A DNA stretch of 64,000 nt from Octopus vulgaris (lineage: Eukaryota): positions 29,760,001 to 29,824,000 of the forward strand of contig OX597817.1 of assembly GCA_951406725.2 (NCBI GenBank), written 5' to 3'. Positions within the stretch are counted from its first letter, which is position 1, and each line of letters starts with the position of its first letter. A program made the position numbers and the translations under genes. Below the pieces are notes generated by a model. It was not told where the DNA came from. It did no database searches and saw only the letters and a program-made list of their open reading frames with translations. Shown here in pieces: positions 791 to 43,915 of the stretch.

Positions 791-2746
791 ATACTATTTT
801 AGCTAGTTTAAAGTGATTTGTTTTGTGCCGTATACCATTTACTATTTCTGCGATGTCTCTCTTCCCTTGATGTCCTAAGTACGTACTTATTTTACTTAAT
901 GGTTAATCTGGCGCGACCCTGGAACCACTAAAAAGCCAGCGCAAGAAGTTTCACTAAACTAGCTTCTAGTAACAGAAACCTGACCACCATTTCTGTACTG
1001 AAGGATGCTAGTAGATTTTAGTATTTTAGCACAAAGTTGTCTCTGCTTGAGCAGACGTATGATTAAAATCATCCCAATGATAATCATCATCTTTTTTGCC
1101 AGGCATCATTTATCTAATGCTATATGATCCGTTGACTGAATAATTTGATAGATCGGGGAATCATACAGAAGCATTTTTTTTTTATTATTTGTGAAATGGA
1201 GGCAATGTACATATATTTAAGATCAGAATATTTTGCAAGACTCGTAACCAAATTCAGTTATCTAAAACAAACACAATATTGCTGATAAATTTAAATCGCC
1301 CCCAACCCACCACTACTAATTTCTCGGCATAAATGCTGTAATGATTTAGGCACGAATTAGAACAATTGGTTGCCTAAATCATTAGCTGTTATCAAGTTCC
1401 ATTTATTCTCACCAATCTACAGAGCAACTATAGATTATAGTTCGTAGAACGGCTGCTTTATTTAAAGCGTAATTTTCGAATTCGTTTCTAGTTGGCAACT
1501 GTTAAATTTTCACTTTTCACAAATCACAGCATGAATATTGAAACATTCAGTATACTAAAGTATATACACGGAAAGTAAGTAATTCAGTATAATGAAGTAT
1601 ATTTGTAGTTGTGCTTGGCCTAGTGATTAGGATGTTGAACTCACTATCATAAGATCGTAGGTTCGATTCTTAGACTGGACAGCACGATATGTACCTCAGA
1701 AATTCATTTTAACTTGCACTGATTCAGGCTACACAACTGAAAATGCGTAGCAACTAAGTGATGATGCCGCCTACTATTTGTTTTCTCTCACTTCAGTAAT
1801 CACATCCATAACGTTCCTTAGAGCCAAGGGTAAGAAGGTTGAGAAGAATATTGTCTATGTTAGTTCGCAACTACACATAAAATATGTAGCAAAAGCATAC
1901 TAAGGTAAAAGAAAAAATTTGTCACAAAAAAAAAATTAGAAAGCCAACAGCAAGAGAAAATTATTCATTTCACCATAAGTTGTTTCTATTTCACTTTAGT
2001 ATCATTGCTTAGGTCGAAACGAAACTGCAGTAAATTAAAACATGTTCACTCGCTTTCTATTGATTCTAACTTAGAATTTCACCTTATTTTCATCATTGAT
2101 TCCAAGCCTTGAATAGACAGAAAGTCACGGCCCAGCATTCTAGTCATGACCAGTTGAAAGTTTTCTATAAGTCTCGTTACCATTATTTTCAAACTTCCAA
2201 GATTAAGTATCCTGATGGCTAATGATTCCGAAATCAATAATTTTGATATTTATGCTATTTCCAAAAGGATTTCCAGGTTGACACTAAGAAATAAGATAAC
2301 AATTAGAGTAAGAGAGCAAATACGTTAATGTTACTATATTTAATGCAAAAAGCATTCAATATGTTTCTCGAAAATAATTATGTGATGAGGAAAAAAGAAT
2401 ATTATTCATTGACTGATTATTTTTATGGGAGACAACGCTGGACATGCTTTGGCATTATACTGATCTCATCAATAGAGTCTAGACGTGCCAAAATAATGGA
2501 GAAAGAATAGTTTGTAAGTAAAAATTATTTAGAGAATGAATACCTCGAGTAATTCAAATTGCGTTAAAAAAGAATAGTCAAGTTACTCGTAAAATATTTA
2601 ATGCAGGCAGCATTACTAGAAATAGCTAGAAATAATTACGCAATGAGGAAATTTTAATGATACCAGCGAATAATGATAACAATTCAGATGTATTTTTGAT
2701 CTTTGCTACAATGTCTGAATGTATATTCTTTTCTGTGCATTTGTAA

Positions 2747-2804
<58 letters not shown>

Positions 2805-2854
2805 ATATAATATAATATAATATAATATAATATAATATAATATAATATAATATA
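2747..2854. repeat. (TA)n followed by (ATATA)n microsatellite
   Basis: Seen directly. Confidence 0.95.
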
Positions 2855-3269
2855 ACAGAATATAATATATATCCCGTCCTGTGTATGTGTGTGTAAAAGA
2901 TTATAACGGCTGAATTTATCATCTTATTTTCTCGAAACTGGGAACATACATTACTTATGTTCCAGGGATGGTTTTAGACACTTAAAAGTTTTCACATAAT
3001 GCTATCAGGCCCCCTGGGGGAAGAAAAACTCCGTCCCTGGGTTACGTGGAAAAGGGAGGTAACTCTGCGAAGTAACTTTCAGAAGTTGATTGTCTCCTAT
3101 TGGTCATAAAAAAGCAAAAATATTCTTTTCATATTAGATTCACGTCATTGAAAGTTTTTTAAATATTTACTTCCAGTTTTCTAGCGTCAGTGATGTCTAT
3201 ATCTCTCTATTCATATCTCACTAACCATTTCTTTCTATCTCTATCACTCTATATCTCTCTATCTATATT

Positions 3270-3425
<156 letters not shown>

Positions 3426-4130
3426 ATATCATATCTAACTATGTCTATCTTATTTTTCTACCTAGCTAGCTCTCTTTCTCTCTCTCTCTTTATATATATA
3501 TCTCACTCACGTTCTAGTGTTTTCATTTTCATTTTTCAGATGCTACTGTTTTCACTTTAAGTTCAATCGCTATTGTTTTCACTGTAAGTTTTCAATCGCT
3601 GTTTACAAACAACAACCACAAACTACTGACAGAAATAAGTTCACAATTACTGATGAAAGTTATTTCATACATAATTTACGGACAGAAATAACTTCAAAAA
3701 TTTCCCTTCATTCTGTACACTTTTGTTGTTAATGGAATTACTACTAAAATTAAGTTCATAATTTACTGATAGAAGTAACTTCATAAATTTTACTTCAATC
3801 CGTAAACTTAGTTAATTTCCCTAAAAATTTCTTATTTACTTTTGCAGCGATTTTGTGTTTTTCTGTTGTTAATGGCTTTTTTCAGATTCCTTCAATACTG
3901 GCTCTTTGGTTTACTAATTGACTAATTTCGCTTCAACCCGTACAATTCTTTATTTTTCGTAAAAATTTCATATTTATATTCTGCCCGTCGTATTAAGAAA
4001 TATAATTTCCGTTACCTGGTTATTTTCATTGTTTACTATCTTCTGCACATGTGTATTTCCGTATATGTATATAACTACACCTAGAAGGAAAATGTCAAAT
4101 TAGTCTACAGTATAAAGGTCAGCCAAAAGA

Positions 4131-4540
4131 ATGTCTCTGTCCAAGGAAAGAGAGACAGCTGCAGAAATGGAAGGATGCCAAGAAACGAACAGACTGTGCA
4201 CTCTAAAAGCTAGAGCATCTCAAAGCGATGAACAGAGGTATGCACTTCTGACAAGGAGTAGGATCTCCACTGCAGAACGAAGAACAGTTGCAACAGCTCA
4301 GAGAAGCAACTTCCATGAAGCAGCTTAAGATTATGATCCAACAGTTCATTATGCAGATGACACTAGAGTTTCCATTAGTGCAATGACAACTGAGTGCATA
4401 CATTGTAAAGCAAGGAAGTAGCCTAGAGAGACATCTGCACTGTGTTGCAGTGGTGGAAAGGTTTAACTCACTGCAATCCCCCAGCCTCCAGAGCCATTGA
4501 AGAAACTGTTGTCATCAGCTGACCAAGATTCCAAGCACTT
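4131..4540 (+). mobile_element. Helitron Rep/Helicase N-terminal fragment (pseudogenised)
   Basis: Translates as MTTECIHCKARK*PRETSALCCSGGKV*LTAIPQPPEPLKKLLSSADQDSKHF, the CxxC..CC..GKV.L...PPEPL..LL....SKHF motif typical of Helitron RepHel N-termini; contains in-frame stops. Confidence 0.8.
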
Positions 4541-5296
4541 TGAAGGCTATGCATTTGCAATACAAGGAGAGGAGACTGCTACTAAATACCCGATATACAT
4601 AGTGAAACCCTTGGAGTTGCAAGATGTAACCGAAAATGTAGATTATATCATATTTCTGCGGAAGACATCACACATGTGATTAGCATCTGCCCCAAAATAT
4701 CATTAAGATACGACCTCCCTATGCGACACGACATTGTTGCAAAAACTATATGCAATGCCAATCGAAAAAAAATAATACTGTCCTGGAATGAATATAGAGT
4801 ATCCTTCTGTTATTGACTACGTACACAAACAACTACATAAGGAATGCGCGAGGAACATTCCTATGAAAACATCTGTCAAGGGTAAAAATTACAGACCGGA
4901 TACTGTGAGACAGGAAAAGGTATGTATCGTCATAGAGGTCAGCCTGATGTGATTATCTCTGAAAATCAAAGAGAAAGAGTATAACTATGGACAACTGTTT
5001 CGAAACCTCCAGCTTTTATATCTAGAATACAAATTCACATTTACACCAATAATAATTGGTACACACTTAGTTTTGTGAGTAGATGCCTAAGTGACAGTCT
5101 GGATAAGCTTGGATTTTCAGAAAAAGAAATAAACTAACTTGCGCACTACATATACAATCAGTAAGATGGCAAGAGAAAATATTCAAGTTTTTAGAATGTG
5201 ACGATGTTTTCTAAATTCCGACGATGGAGCTTTGGATCTTATCAGAAACCAGCACTTTCTTCAGAGGAAGAATTTAAATAATTAGAAACTTATTAC
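4536..5296 (+). mobile_element. 3' fragment of an RLE-type non-LTR retrotransposon (R4/Dong-like), degenerate
   Basis: HFEGYAFAIQGEE, then EDITHVISICPKISLRYDLPMRHDIVAKTI (zinc knuckle + RHD) and YRPD (RLE catalytic region); ends against (CA)n at ~5297. Confidence 0.75.
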
Positions 5297-37133: not shown

Positions 37134-37755
37134 TATATAGGATTAATTGTATATTAATAAGATTAATTGTATATTATATAAAATGAAGAAAAATTTGCTA
37201 AAACTGCAACACTTTTGTTTGAAGTTAAACAATATCAATGTTTTCTATTATTCGTCAAATACTTAATGCAATTACAAAAATGACTGAGATTGTTCCAGCA
37301 GCTTCATTATCAGTTCAGACACCAGGTTCATTACCTGAACATAAAACAGATGTGACTATATCATCAATTGGTCAGTCTTAATATGCAAAGTAGCCAACCA
37401 ATTTGTTCTGTTCACATAGATCATATAAAGTGAATAATAATACCCTTGCAATAGTAAATAAAGTTGTAAAAAATCTGATGTTACCTATCAGCACAAAAAT
37501 TCTAAGTAGCTACAGACCAAGATACATTGGCTTTCAAATTTGAAAACTGATCTAAGTCTACAATTAAAAATGCTAAACTGTACCATTAGAAATATCATAT
37601 GAAATATAATACTATCCAAAAAGAGGGAATCTAGTTGTAGATGCTTTAAAGGAGAATCTCTGCATTTGCTAAAAATAATTAATATTGAACTACATATATA
37701 TATATGTATGGTATGCTCCTGCTTTCAGTGTTTTCAAATCCAAACCAGGGAGTTC

Positions 37756-37808
37756 TGAGCTGATGATAGAAGTGTCGAGTTTGACTAATCTTGAAACGTA
37801 CGTTCTCA
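37756..37808 (+). ncRNA. Type I hammerhead ribozyme motif, copy 1
   Basis: TGAG-CTGATGA-[TAGA..GTC GAGTTT GAC..TCTT]-GAAA-CGTACG-TT-CTCA: canonical core, palindromic ACGTACGT stem III, predicted cleavage after 37804. Confidence 0.8.
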
Positions 37809-38314
37809 AATAACCTTTGCATTTGATTTTTTAATGTTTCTACCCTCATACTTTCGTGAGTTGAATTGAACAAGCACTATTTGAGAGAGATTTTCTTTAA
37901 GTATTGGAAATAGTTTTTAAAAAGTTTTTTTGGCTGCTATTTCTAATGAGTTCAGTATGCGACAAAGTAATTTATTTTACTAAGCCCTTTTATATAATGT
38001 AATAATTTGAATTCGCCTTAAATGGTCCCTTTGCATACTGAACACTTGGTGAAATTGATTAATTAATTAATTTTACCCTCAATTGTTGAAATTATAATTC
38101 ATCTTTCTCTATTTAATGCCTCGGATTTTACCGAAAAAAAAGCATGTTCTTTGTTGATTTTAACCCACGCTGGTGGAAGGGGAGAGCAGAAATCCTTCGC
38201 TTGCATATTTGAATTCGTTGGCACTGTTAGTTGCGAGTAGATCTTCGGAGACGATGGGAAACCGAATAGGTATGCTCCTGCTTTCAGTGTTTTCAAATCC
38301 AAACCAGGGAGTTC

Positions 38315-38367
38315 TGAGCTGATGATAGAAGTGTCGAGTTTGACTAATCTTGAAACGTACGTTCTCA
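38315..38367 (+). ncRNA. Type I hammerhead ribozyme motif, copy 2
   Basis: Identical to copy 1; predicted cleavage after 38363. Confidence 0.8.
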
Positions 38368-38568
38368 AATAACCTTTGCATTTGATTTTTTAATGTTTCT
38401 ACCCTCATACTTTCGTGAGTTGAATTGAACAAGCACTATTTGAGAGAGATTTTCTTTAAGTATTGGAAATAGTTTTTAAAAAAGATTTTTTTGGCTGCTA
38501 TTTCTAATGAGTTCAGTATGCGGCAAAGTAATTTATTTTACTAAGCCCTTTTATATAATATATATATA

Positions 38569-38930
38569 TATATAACGGGAAGCTTTATGAAAATAAACAA
38601 AAGACGAAGGCAGGTGGAAAACAAACGAACAATTGTATTAGTATGGCGCTCAGGAAATATAAATAAAACAAGTCTTTAACGTTTCGAGCCTACACTCTTC
38701 AACAGAAAGATACACAGAGAGAAAAAAAACACAGAAAGAAGGAAGAAAAAAATGCGTGCTGTAGCTAACGAATCAACATGGCGATCTGATTTCGGCCAGA
38801 GGTCAAAGATCAAACATGAGACGCGAGAGCGAAATAAGGGGAGATAATAGGGTTGAGGGACCAGCTAATAGTGCGTAGGAGGGGTCTGGATGTGTGTATG
38901 TATAGGGTTGGTGTATGTATTAGTATGTAT

Positions 38931-38969
<39 letters not shown>

Positions 38970-39450
38970 TATTAGTGCGTAGGATTGGTCTGGACGTGCG
39001 TATGTATGGGGTTGGTGTATGTATTAGTATGTATTAGTATGTATTAGTACGTATTAATATGTATAAGTGTGTGTGTGTGTGTATGAGAGAGTATAAGTGC
39101 GTATGCGGGGTCTGGACGTGTGTATGTATAGGGTTGGTGTATGTATTAGTATGTACTAGTATGTATTAGTACGTATTAGTATGTATTAGTTGGTGTATGT
39201 ATTAGTATGGCACATCATATGTGATGTGATGTGTAAAGTCATGTGGTGTAGTGAGGAGAAGAGGGGGAGGAGAGAAGGGGAGGGGAAGAAGAGGGGGGAG
39301 AGGATGGGGGAGAAGGAGGGGGAGGAGGGGGGATGAAGGAGGAGAGGGGGAGAGAGAAGGGGAGAGAGGGAGTGAGGGAGCAGAAGGAAGGGGAAGAGGG
39401 AGGGAGAAAGAGGGAAGAAGGGGAGTAGGGGTGAAAGGATGAAGGACTGA
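38569..39450 (-). repeat. 3' pseudo-LTR of the PLE
   Basis: Near-identical to 43021-43915; contains (GTATGTATTA)n and a purine-rich tract. Confidence 0.9.
38673..38710 (-). ncRNA. Minimal hammerhead-like motif in the 3' pseudo-LTR (CTGTTGA core variant)
   Basis: TCTTT-CTGTTGA-A-GAGT GTAG GCTC-GAAA-CG-TT-AAAGA. Confidence 0.6.
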
Positions 39451-42402
39451 AGAAGTAGGGGTCGGGGGAAAGGATAGGTGAGGAGGGGGGAGAGGGGGTT
39501 AGATGAGGAGGGGGGAAGTTGAGACCAAATGGCGTATAAGAGCGAAGAGAGAAGATTAATTCCTGTTCACGGCGCAAACGGGAATCCGGATGGCCTCTGT
39601 GTAAGGACAAACCGAACACAGATAGGTGTTGCAAGGAGTGACCGGTGGAGCGGAAATGGCGTGAGACCGGTGTGTCGTTCGCAAGGTGGATGTCACGAAG
39701 GTGTTCCGCGAACCGGTCAGCCAAGCGGCGTCCCGTTTGTCCGATGTACAAGGAATTGCAGAGAGAGCAAGAGATGCAATAGATAATATTGCTGGAGGTG
39801 CAGGTGAAGGAGTGGATGATGGGATAGGGTCGATGGTGGGTGCTAGTGAGGCGGGTGGTGTTGGAGAGGTAAGGGCAAGTGCGGCAACGTGGGCGGGAGC
39901 AGGGGAACGAGCCGGGTTGGGAGGTAGGGTCAGGGAAGGAGCTATGGACCAAAAGGTCTCGAAGGTTGTGGGCTCGTTTGAAAGAGGGGAGGGGTCGGTT
40001 AGGGAAGAGGTGTGAAGTGGACGGGTCGGACTGGAGATGACGGAAAGCTCGAAGAATGGTGCGTTGGAGACGTAGGGTCGTGGGGTGGTAAGTGAGGGGA
40101 AAAGGGAGGCGGGAGACTACAGGGCGGGTTCGGGGAGAGAGAGCAGATACACGTTCCACGGACCGTGCTCTGGCAAGGGCGGTGTGGATAGTGGTGAGGG
40201 GGTATCCACGTAGGGTGAAGTGGTGAGCCATACGTTGAGACTGAGTCTCAAAGTCATGGTCGTCACTACAGAGCCTACGTAGACGGAGGAATTGGAAATA
40301 GGGGATGGAAAGCTTGGTGTGTTCTGGGTGGGAGGAAGAGAAGTTGAGGTATGAGTGTGAGTCTGTGTGTTTGTAGTGAATGGAGGTGGTAAGAGTGGAG
40401 TGAAGAATGCTAACCGAAATGTCGAGGAAGGAGACAGAGGTGTTGGAGATAGTGGAAGTGAAGTGGAGGGCTGGATGGAAAGATTGGACGAAAGAGAGGA
40501 AGGAATCTAGATGTTCGCGGGAGAGTGAGGTGGCACCGATAATGTCGTCAATGTAACGACCATATAGTTCAGGAGTGGGACCAGTGAAATTAGAGAATAT
40601 TTGGGCCTCAACATAGCCAACGAACAGGTTCGCGTAGTTGGGGCCCATTCGCGTTCCCATGGCCACTCCCGAGACCTGATGGTAGAACTCGCCCGCGAAC
40701 GAGAAGCAGTTCAGAGTAAGGACAAGTTCGGCCAGACGAATGAGTGTGGAGGTGTCAGGTACAGGGCTAGAGCGGAGGTCAAGAAAGTGTCGAAGGGCCT
40801 GCAGTCCTTCGTGGTGAGGGATTACAGTATAGAGGCTTTGGATGTCCATAGTAAAAAGGATTTTGGAGGAGCCGGGAGGAAAGGAGAAAGAGTTGAAAAG
40901 CCGGAGAGCATGGTTGGTATCGTGGATGTGGGAGGGAAGAGATGCCACTAGGGGGGCAAGGACACGGTCGAGGTATTTAGAGATGAGCTCCGTGGGGCAG
41001 TTACAGGCGGAGACGATGGGGCGGCCAGGGTTGTTGGGTTTGTGGATTTTGGGGAGGAAGTAAATGGTGGGGGTACGTGGGGTTCGCACAATTAGAATGG
41101 ATGCGGTGCGGGGGAGACGGGAGGACGAGATGAGGTCTTGGACAGTAGAGGATACCGTCTGTTGGTAGCTACGTGTGGGGTTAGAGGGCAGAGGGGAATA
41201 GAAGGAGGTGTCATTGAGTTGGCGGAAAGCCTCGGCCCTATAGAGGTCCGCGCGCCACACCACTACAGCTCCACCCTTGTCAGCCGGTTTGATGATAATG
41301 TCAGCGCGTCGTTGGAGGGAACGAAGAGCCAAGAGCTCAGCCGGGGAGATGTTGAGGCGGCGTTGGCGCCTGGAGAAGTTGAACCGCTCCAATGCACGCT
41401 GACAAGCGCCCGCGAAAAGATCCACTGCTAGGATCTGGCCAGGGGCAGGCGTCCACAGGGATGGTCGGCGGCCCAGGCCAGTGAAGCAGTCCCTCTTCGT
41501 TGGGTGTGGGTGGCGAGTCGTGGTAATGCGCACCCAACCGGACACGGCGCACAAAGCTGTGGACATCAACTCGCGTCTGGAATTCCTTACAGGATGGAGT
41601 GAGGGGGATGAAACGCAGACCCCTACCAAGGACGGAGCGTTCAGCCGCAGAGAGGGGACGATCGGGGGGAATGATAACAACAGACGGAAGTGGAGAAGGG
41701 GTGGGTGGAATAGAAGTAGGAGGGGTGGTAGGTCTCGTGGAGGTCTGAGGGGGAGGGATTGGGGAGGTGTGTAGGGGTGGTTGGGCGGGGCAGTAGGGTT
41801 AGGTGTAGGTGGATGGAGCCTAACGGGAGGGGAGAAGGGGTTGTAGGGAGGGGCAGTGGGGTTAGGTGTGGGTGGATGGAGCCTATCGGGAGGGGAGAAG
41901 GGTGGTGGAGGAGTTGGGGTAGTGGCGTCGGGTAGGGTGGAATGGAAGAGTGATTGGAGTTTACGAAGTTTGGTATCAGAAAGAAATTGATGGAAGAGTT
42001 GATTCAAATGGATAATGAAGCGTAGCGTGTTTGGAGCATAGAGAGGCGGCAGAGAGGAGAAGAAGGTGGAGAAAGCAGGAGGAAGAAGGCGGTTGATGGC
42101 ATGTAGTTTGGAGAGATTGGAGCGAATGGTGGCCCGCATAAGGCGGTAAGATGTGGTGCGGAGTATGGGTAAGATGGAAGAATCCGAGTGGAGGGCAGGG
42201 TGGAAGTGGAGGCAGAAACCTTTAGGGATGAGTCGGTGATGTAGGCAGCGGCTTAGGAAAGAGACATGGCTAGAGAAGCGGGTTTTTTAAAAAGAAGTAG
42301 AGAGAGATTAACGGACGGCTGAAGGCAATATACAGGAAGCGAACGGAGATGATCCTTCAAACGGTGATGGAGGGTGAGGAGGTAGGACCTAGGATCCGGC
42401 AT
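39239..42402 (-). pseudogene. PLE polyprotein: reverse transcriptase + Zn-finger linker + GIY-YIG endonuclease, with apparent frameshifts in the N-terminal third
   Basis: KPADKGGAVVVW, FLPKIHKPNNPGRPIVS, TMDIQSLYT, GVAMGTRMGPNYANLFV, RYIDD, FLDI, CSRPRCRTC, NIIYCISCSLCNSLYIGQTGRRLADRFAEH, PFGLN; probable true start MPDPRS at ~42402. Confidence 0.9.
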
Positions 42403-43020
42403 GATGGGATAGCGGAAAAAAAACGTTCGAAAAAACAAAAAAAAAACAAAAAACAAAAATTATCGTATGAAAAAAATAGAAAAAAAGGATAGCGAAAAAA
42501 GGGGAAAAAACAAACGTTCAAAAAAACAAAAAAATAATAATCGTATGAAAAAACAGATAAGTAAGCGATAGGGGCAGAAAAGACGGGGCAAACGGAAAAG
42601 GGAAAGAAAGAAGGGAAGCAGAGAGAGGGGGAGGCAAAAAAAGGGGGGTGCAGGCAGAGGAAACGGAGTATGGACATCCAGAGAGGGAAGAAAGACGGAA
42701 AGGAGAACAAATATGCAGGAAAATGTGGAAAGCATGAAATGAATGTAAAAAAAGTGGTAATATAAGAGAAAATAAAAATACAACAAACGGGACAGCTTAT
42801 GCGAACAAGTTCAAGGTTGAAAGTTCAAGGTGAGAAATGTGTAGACGTCGTGGTATATTTTTTAAGGATTTCACATCAATGCAAAGTCACTTTGATCCGC
42901 GAAAGAGAGGTGCAGCCAATGGTAAGTATCCAAGAGGTAAAGAAAATCCAAGGTAGAGGTAAGTGTTGATAGTGGTATTGGTAGAATATAGGATGAAAGT
43001 GAGACCACGTGAGCGCATAA

Positions 43021-43915
43021 TATATAACGGGAAGCTTTATGAAAATAAACAAAAGACGAAGGCAGGTGGAAAACAAACGAACAATTGTATTAGTATGGCG
43101 CTCAGGAAATATAAATAAAACAAGTCTTTAACGTTTCGAGCCTACGCTCTTCAACAGAAAGATACACAGAGAGAAAAAAAACACAGAAAGAAGGAGAGAA
43201 AAAAATGCGTGCAGTAGCTAACGAATCAACATGGCGATCTGATTTCGGCCAGAGGTCAAAGATCAAACATGAGACGCGAGAGCGAAATAAGGGGAGATAA
43301 TAGGGTTGATAAAGGGTTGAGGGACCAGCTAATAGTGCGTAGGAGGGGTTTGGATGTGTGTATGTATAGGGTTGGTGTATGTATTAGTATGTATAAGGGT
43401 GTGTGTGTGTGTGTGAGAGAGTATTAGTGCGTAGGATTGGTCTGGACGTGCGTATGTATGGGGTTGGTGTATGTATTAGTATGTATTAGTATGTATTAGT
43501 ACGTATTAGTATGTATAAGTGTGTGTGTGTGTGTATGAGAGAGTATAAGTGCGTATGCGGGGTCTGGACGTGTGTATGTATAGGGTTGGTGTATGTATTA
43601 GTATGTACTAGTATGTATTAGTACGTATTAGTATGTATTAGTTGGTGTATGTATTAGTATGGCACATCATATGTGATGTGATGTGTAAAGTCATGTGGTG
43701 TAGTGAGGAGAACAGGGGGAGAGGGAGAACAGGGGAGGGGGAGAAGAGGGGGAGGAGAGGATGGGGGAGAAGGAAGGGGAGGAGGGGGGATGAAGGAGGA
43801 AAGAGGGAGAGGGGGAGAGAGAAGGGGAGAGAGGGAGTGAAGGAGCAGAGGGAAGGGGAAGAGGGACGGAGAAAGAGGGAAGAAGGGGAGTAGGGGTGAA
43901 AGGATGAAGGACTGA
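43021..43915 (-). repeat. 5' pseudo-LTR of the PLE
   Basis: Direct repeat of 38569-39450. Confidence 0.9.
43125..43162 (-). ncRNA. Minimal hammerhead-like motif in the 5' pseudo-LTR
   Basis: TCTTT-CTGTTGA-A-GAGC GTAG GCTC-GAAA-CG-TT-AAAGA. Confidence 0.6.

Follow-up and report, generated by a model that had tools for sequence, protein, structure and literature searches.

A non-coding hammerhead repeat family of Octopus vulgaris and its likely spread in the manner of Penelope-like elements

The locus and its repeat family

The window analysed here is a 64 000-nt stretch of the 2.8-Gb Octopus vulgaris genome (contig OX597817.1; G000:C4:29760001-29824000). It holds an insertion built from a 559-nt non-coding unit with a hammerhead ribozyme, next to a coding Penelope-like element (PLE). 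The hammerhead-bearing tandem family to which this insertion belongs probably spreads as a non-autonomous Penelope-type retroelement, that is, a retrozyme without long terminal repeats (non-LTR retrozyme), by the dual priming of a PLE enzyme. A first-pass annotation had proposed a retrozyme from the letters of the window, and much of its description stands. CTGATGA motifs are read directly at 37760-37766 and 38319-38325, 559 nt apart, and GAAACGTACGTT is read at 37793-37804 and 38352-38363. The repeat copies (37710-37996 and 38269-38557) are near-identical, as had been noted: one 3-column difference in an A/T run and one substitution separate them, and ribozyme copies 1 and 2 are identical. 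The longest stop-to-stop frame of the repeat is 57 aa on the ribozyme strand, in keeping with the reported lack of an open reading frame (ORF) there, and 96 aa on the opposite strand. TA tracts do lie at both ends, and the PLE does adjoin the unit, tail to tail on the opposite strand. The boundaries had been misjudged. Instead of a unit enclosed in LTR fashion by two ribozymes, the insertion comprises 1.52 head-to-tail units, truncated at the 5' side and ending at a fixed 3' site.

Genome-wide, the pattern CTGATGA-N22-30-GAAACGTACGTT is matched 714 + 710 times, against 0 + 0 for the reversed control, so the ribozyme motif is not a chance occurrence. The genome-wide copy search suggested in the first pass thus returns 1,424 exact matches, and tandem copies are abundant. 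A DNA search gave 1,486 candidates, the best 40 of which were scored; across searches, the best 40–150 candidates were scored. The locus sample consists of 83 non-redundant loci, namely the 40 best matches and 43 others; these 43 and six of the best 40 make up the complete set of 49 loci to which the first 100 listed pattern matches on contig C1 belong. Complete monomers (n = 108, in 54 loci) measure 545–564 nt. Most loci contain fewer than three units, and arrays reach about 14. Insertion ends merge into (TA)n, which makes any target-site duplication (TSD) unreadable. The organisation is head-to-tail at 34% GC, and no LTR organisation was found (primer-binding site and polypurine tract were not searched for separately). 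Plant LTR retrozymes carry a type III hammerhead in two LTRs that flank a unique region; the octopus hammerhead is of type I and sits in head-to-tail arrays. Nor does the unit contain the ORF for reverse transcriptase (RT) and GIY-YIG endonuclease (EN) that lies inside an autonomous PLE. A ribozyme-pattern scan of metagenomes gave 0 loci. Parts of the unit occur in 20 of 24 sequencing runs, none of them recorded as RNA. In four runs guessed to be RNA (four studies), contigs cover 30, 24, 28 and 30 of 30 bins, and in three of the four they bridge 38363 to 37805; circle, tandem transcript and DNA would look alike in both respects. Judged by its sequence, the locus is one copy of an abundant non-coding tandem family of the non-LTR retrozyme kind, with every sequence-testable feature in place. 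The retrozyme proposal is supported by tandem, non-coding, multicopy units with a type I hammerhead under purifying selection.

The hammerhead accounts for 150 matches in 40 loci. The core is intact in 144, and the other six are cut by inversion junctions or deletions. Over 54 loci the ribozyme core and stems vary by 0.3–0.5% and loop II by 12%. Among variants the core is invariant, N7 is U, A or C, H17 is U, A or C with no G in the listed variants, and loop II is variable; the core is under purifying selection. Over 14 variants, 92% of cells in the named structure are paired and 3 of 25 pairs are doubly changed. Covariation is 0.104 against 0.080, a value that 0 of 500 shuffles reach, with relatedness uncontrolled. 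In the oldest relatives (two loci) stem II has changed from AGA/TCT to GGA/TCC and from GTC/GAC to GAA/TTC. The label 'canonical' given in the first pass holds for motif and covariation and fails for a library match; the low-scoring Rfam matches are two irrelevant bacterial hits at E 8–10. The T-T mismatch at the base of stem II, flagged as a caveat, is present. It is no sign of decay, since 143 of the 144 core-bearing copies have U·U at 10.1/11.1. Natural U10.1-U11.1 hammerheads have been reported (PMC3088659), and in sister subfamilies the position is G·U, A-U or A·A. The proposed double hammerhead is plausible by predicted energies: a single hammerhead folds at -2.3 kcal/mol against a minimum free energy of -11.9 kcal/mol, and the stem III palindrome is predicted to form a 10-bp duplex at -11.6 kcal/mol. 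Cleavage may accordingly need two hammerhead copies, in which case a monomeric circle would stay uncleaved. Other hammerhead-like families with a palindromic stem III (GAAACATATGT type) occur genome-wide, with 598 matches against 53 in controls; some are mismatched at the base of stem II, and many are sister subfamilies of the unit.

The closest known likeness is axolotl Rtz_353/HHR_Amex2 (Cervera & de la Pena 2020, PMC7229834). Its repeats are likewise non-coding, low in GC and arranged as dimers to multimers with one type I hammerhead per unit, and its ribozyme shares the 2-bp stem III with tetraloop and the U·U at the stem II base. HHR_Amex2 cleaves 22% as a monomer and far more as a dimer. 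The metazoan non-LTR retrozymes of that study measure 170–400 nt and their circular RNAs have been shown; the octopus unit, at 559 nt, lies in (TA)n with no readable TSD, and its circle is a prediction. Inverted two-armed insertions with fixed ends, described below, were not found in the text of PMC7229834 that was searched. The first-pass statement that the unit exceeds known metazoan retrozymes is right against this range and wrong against the 51–972 bp given for vertebrate non-LTR retrozymes by Li, Clavereau and Pollet in 2026 (bioRxiv 10.64898/2026.07.22.740005).

Insertion ends and a conserved module

Each insertion consists of one arm or of two arms joined head to head. Arms end at unit position about 287–292 (site A) or 378–387 (site B), then pass into (TA)n, and their 5' ends vary. 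Of 83 loci, 60 are two-armed: 56 join an A end to a B end, none joins A to A or B to B, and four differ (one cut by N gaps, two that stop 20–25 nt short of A and face B, and one with A facing position 145). The sample ordered by position gives A+B in 35 of 37 two-armed loci. The 23 one-armed loci end at B in 13 cases, at A in nine, the window locus included, and elsewhere in one. Partial tandems, an inverted truncated arm and a tail at one end only are the hallmarks of PLE-type integration, and all are present; the A/B end pattern is the Penelope 'tail' signature. Published inverted PLE insertions carry a 30–40-bp tail at one end (PMC8557442, PMC3846280). The unit thus integrates like a PLE. 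Pattern counts for A and B ends serve as leads only; overlapping matches raise them on the reverse strand. What looks like a fixed 5' terminus at unit position 1 is partly a BLAST query-edge artefact. Within unit positions 1–50 (37710-37760), directly upstream of the ribozyme, lie 24 of 102 arm 5' ends, a cluster that is in part this artefact and perhaps in part RT stalling at stem I.

Apart from the ribozyme, the conserved stretch of the unit is the one from A to B. Over 54 loci the A region varies by 0.4% and the tail by 0.9%, against 3–6% elsewhere. Identity to the sister family (L293-L308) is 96.8% in the A region and 95.8% in the tail, against 68–85% in other regions. The predicted fold of the full monomer has a long stem that encloses two hairpins and a single-stranded A site, with a further hairpin directly before B. 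Compensatory changes in older relatives support this fold; they were read at motif level in the 95 of 138 loci that have the full module, and the counts are of copies, not independent events. One pair is A-U in 78, G-C in 15 and G-U in two (n = 95); a second is C-G in 51, U-A in 29 and unpaired in 15 (n = 95); a hairpin pair is U-A in 98 and C-G in 25 (n = 128). An alignment-based fold, in which 1 of 20 consensus pairs is doubly changed, missed the long stem because the alignment is shifted there. Pairing of the A flank with the B flank (z -2.05) was discarded, as 0 of 34 pairs are compensatory.

Sister-family units are about 563–568 nt long. In their hammerhead, which may cleave as a monomer, 10.1/11.1 is A-U, stem III has 3 bp and a UUGA loop, and the site is GUA. 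Sequences flanking PLEs brought more distant relatives to light (299 + 288 pattern matches, 0 in controls). Down to about 55–65% identity they are non-coding tandem repeats of 529–558 nt with a homologous, often decayed hammerhead, which argues that the lineage has long been independent. Among the matches listed, L372, L373, L375 and several of L380-L392 show the module capping a multi-kb (GGT)n-rich sequence common to the loci. This family apparently has the module without the ribozyme and ends at site B in (TA)n (about 1580 in L372), which suggests that the module may mobilise a passenger.

Table 1. Features of the insertion and of the adjoining element (window positions)
Feature	Position	Strand	Remarks
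(TA)n target tract on the left, where the insertion is 5'-truncated	37694..37709	.	Variable 5' ends among copies
First complete 559-nt unit	37710..38268	+	Permuted relative to predicted monomer
Second, partial unit (unit positions 1-292)	38269..38562	+	Stops at priming site A; 3' limit about 38562
Type I hammerhead 1	37735..37826	+	Core 37760-37766 + 37793-37796; predicted cut after 37804 (37804|37805), site GUU
Features of hammerhead 1	37735..37826	+	U·U at 10.1/11.1, palindromic stem III, extended stem I
Type I hammerhead 2	38294..38385	+	Same as hammerhead 1; predicted cut after 38363 (38363|38364), site GUU
Predicted self-cleaved monomer/circle	37805..38363	+	559 nt, 34% GC, fold z about -3.5
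Conserved structured module, putatively for priming	37950..38077	+	Conservation, fold, compensatory changes
Module long stem	37950-37960 with 38033-38043	+	Predicted fold
Module hairpins	37966-37981, 38015-38026, 38048-38077	+	Predicted fold
End site A, internal copy	37982..38001	+	AAGCCCTTTTATATAATGTA; arm ends
End site B, internal copy	38077..38096	+	CCTCAATTGTTGAAATTATA; arm ends
A-to-B distance			About 95 nt, the 'tail'
Right (TA)n tract	38559..38574	.	Common to unit and 3' end of neighbouring PLE
Neighbouring autonomous-type PLE (Neptune-like)	38575..43915	-	pLTR-ORF-pLTR (pLTR, pseudo-LTR), period 4452
Intact 1015-aa open frame of neighbouring PLE	39239..42286	-	RT PF00078, E 1.4e-7; CxxC linker; C-terminal GIY-YIG-type motif

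Penelope-like elements as candidate partners

Endonuclease-bearing (EN+) PLEs, such as the Neptune type and Poseidon_Ac, are among the nearest known counterparts of the unit (PMC11167929, PMC8557442, PMC3846280). They share with the unit the partial tandems, the inverted 5'-truncated arm, a tail at one end, two internal RT start sites, AT-rich or (TA)n targets and a hammerhead upstream of the ends. They differ in having an ORF, a tail of 30–40 rather than about 95 nt, and a minimal hammerhead where the unit has a full-size one with extended stems. For the PLE of PMC11167929, a single protein, predicted to act as a dimer, both cuts and extends the two strands, and tail length equals the distance between the two internal RT start sites. 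Two young coding families of the octopus with (TA)n targets, PLE-B (811-aa frames; many copies 97–98% identical, very young) and PLE-C (784-aa frames; copies 99% identical), obey the same rule: A+B ends are found in 16 of 17 PLE-B and 12 of 13 PLE-C loci, picked as inverted or long. These two families and the findings of PMC11167929 speak for a PLE enzyme as the likely agent of dual priming of the unit. Both families were rejected as parents for want of sequence likeness to the unit; the best matches (E 0.09 and 0.03) are AT-rich. At L261, PLE-B has two minus-strand frames, 3689-5176 (about 450 aa) followed by 1428-3863 (811 aa, RT-EN). The ribozyme-like cores of PLE-B and PLE-C read UUGAAAA, which we take to be possibly a U3-A8 variant. 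At least two further PLE families were seen as fragments only.

The neighbouring PLE, called Neptune-like on the basis of PMC8557442, is young and TA-targeting and has a single end site. Its GIY-YIG motif was read by eye; Pfam gave no GIY-YIG call. The first pass had the unit mobilised by PLE RT, and the integration signature upholds that much; the abutting PLE was rejected as the partner, having no nucleotide similarity to the unit. It fits poorly because of its single end site and because it is inverted in only 1 of the 39 loci with a visible 5' junction. A supposed second end 89 nt upstream was dropped (six pattern matches, four loci). A unit and this PLE adjoin at 1 of 129 unit ends by regular expression (regex), the window itself, and at L121 by eye. 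Such adjacency is compatible with a shared use of TA tracts, and the neighbouring PLE is likely an independent insertion. It contains a ribozyme-like motif (38676-38716, minus; unusual core, UUGAAGA preceded by CUG; loopless palindromic stem III). Its family has given rise to non-coding tandem derivatives of 460–540 nt, made of the pLTR and 5' region with this motif (L136, L142, L143 and L150-L153, the last at G000:C8:18600550-18602540); one array has at least four units of 492–493 nt each. These derivatives are possibly retrozymes at birth. The motif CACGTG lies near the pLTR junction of the neighbouring PLE (43010-43000, minus), twice in PLE-B and also in the sister family (L293), and is possibly a promoter element. 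Elsewhere in the window lie a LINE-type RT fragment (PF00078; 6697-7872, minus) and a mariner-type transposase fragment (PF01359; 57427-57960, minus).

The template, competing explanations and outlook

The nature of the RNA template can be approached through the arms. Unit divergence is 0.39% within an arm, 0.65% across the two arms and 4.6% between loci. The nearest unit lies in the same locus in 71 of 72 cases, and the closest match, ties included, is the partner arm in 33 of 35. Units so nearly identical across arms indicate a single template haplotype for the two arms. Of the 102 arms in 51 two-armed loci, 87 run across the cleavage site, 39 of them at least twice, and the 50-nt bin with this site holds only 5 of 102 arm 5' ends, with no pile-up. 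Read-through without such a pile-up argues against a cleaved linear monomer as the usual template and in favour of a circle or an uncleaved multimer.

A mechanism consistent with these observations can be outlined. (i) Paired hammerheads would cleave tandem transcripts, and the products would likely be ligated to 559-nt circles. (ii) A dimeric PLE RT-endonuclease would attach to the conserved module between A and B and cut a TA tract. (iii) The two DNA ends would be primed on a single RNA, one of them at site A and the second at B. (iv) Copying would proceed round the circle past the ribozyme. In this scheme we infer cleavage, expression, a circular rather than a linear-multimeric template, the dimer geometry and the choice of donor PLE. 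A more far-reaching version is tentative, and we incline to doubt it as a whole: the insertions would record an asymmetric twin priming that took place on a single circular RNA, and a module of about 150 nt would be portable and alone sufficient. The dimer would dock on the module, both subunits would copy the circle by rolling-circle reverse transcription, and the module alone would retro-home unrelated RNA into (TA)n, as the (GGT)n-rich passenger family suggests. Metazoan retrozyme repeats have been described as having no conserved motif that identifies an autonomous partner (PMC7761336). If the twin-priming version holds, the module would be the kind of cis-element found wanting in metazoan retrozymes by a 2020 review.

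Several points weigh against spread by PLE dual priming from hammerhead-processed RNA. On the ribozyme side, no Rfam hammerhead family is found in the window at gathering score or at E<=10, the cleavage site is GUU, the single hammerhead is not the predicted ground state, and 8 of 9 Xenopus retrozymes assayed were uncleaved in vitro (bioRxiv 10.64898/2026.07.22.740005). Uncleaved RNA is the dominant insertion substrate of the PLE studied in PMC11167929. The tails of PLE-B (40 nt) and PLE-C (38 nt) are shorter than that of the unit, and no coding PLE similar to the unit was found in the three families compared. The A+B rule is broken by one B+B locus among the 17 of PLE-B and in older relatives (B+B in L295, apparently also in L355 and L363 by regex), and the module copies with compensatory changes are not independent. 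Finally, adjacent units of L031 share variants, which is unexpected for a single unchanging circle.

The alternative that survives best, unlikely as we judge it, keeps PLE dual priming and replaces the circle by an uncleaved linear multimer, with the hammerhead retained for another step. The shared L031 variants favour it, although they fit neither template cleanly. Since donor arrays are homogeneous (0.39%), one haplotype per insertion is expected here too, and ribozyme mutants of the PLE in PMC11167929 insert normally in vitro, with no RNA-seq reads ending at the cut. A multimer should, however, bring mirror-position units of the two arms closer together, and they are not (0.36% against 0.30% for non-mirror units; 7 of 20 loci closer, 4 farther, 9 equal; no multimer signal, at low power). 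Arms reach 11 complete units though most loci have fewer than three, whereas 5' truncation would shorten arrays at each generation; and the ribozyme core is under purifying selection.

It is more improbable still that the unit is the amplified terminus (pLTR and 5' region) of an extant, unsampled coding PLE family. The non-coding derivatives of the neighbouring PLE are a precedent close at hand, 24 of 57 Xenopus retrozyme families are homologous to transposable elements, nearly all of them PLEs (bioRxiv 10.64898/2026.07.22.740005), and the searches scored the best candidates only. The relatives at about 55–65% identity are nevertheless already non-coding tandems. Translated searches (tblastn) with PLE RT-EN over 139 unit loci found separate neighbouring insertions only, and 20 sister-family and 30+17 oldest-relative loci were likewise without an internal coding PLE. 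Among 185 PLE-derived loci (740 kb), none showed a pLTR homologous to the unit. A search with L208 returned another short repeat and says nothing either way. The first pass had allowed that the unit might be the deleted terminus of a coding PLE, which it is at none of the loci examined. Least credible is a satellite whose ribozyme is vestigial, whose arrays grew by local DNA recombination and whose dispersed copies were not retrotransposed. Arrays are locally homogeneous, as it would predict, but unequal crossing-over accounts neither for 3' ends fixed in TA tracts and 5' ends that vary nor for 5' inversions and the A+B rule. Selection on RNA structure also speaks against it, and the end pattern has largely refuted it.

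What is new about this family is the integration footprint; the element class, the size range and the proposal of PLE dependence were known already. The 2026 preprint reports that vertebrate retrozymes co-occur with PLEs and proposes their dependence on them, through pLTR homology and phylogeny; the octopus unit is linked by its footprint, with no homologous pLTR found. The word 'tail' is absent from the main text of that preprint. The literature searched, with many subscription papers and supplements lying outside it, gave no earlier account of a retrozyme that has a tail signature, pairs A with B ends or carries a conserved module for priming.

The mobilisation mechanism of retrozymes was described in the 2026 preprint as still to be elucidated. 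The unit family offers features that can be counted: ends fixed at A and B, one end of either kind and a single haplotype in each inverted insertion, and arms that read through the ribozyme site. It also has a structurally conserved module. PLE-dependent and possibly rolling-circle mobilisation becomes testable with the in vitro assay of PMC11167929. The strict pairing of A with B limits the ways in which a PLE dimer can use its two start sites, and the module, should it prove portable, would serve to tag RNA for templated insertion into TA microsatellites. The unit points to an RNA element that would recruit a Penelope enzyme.
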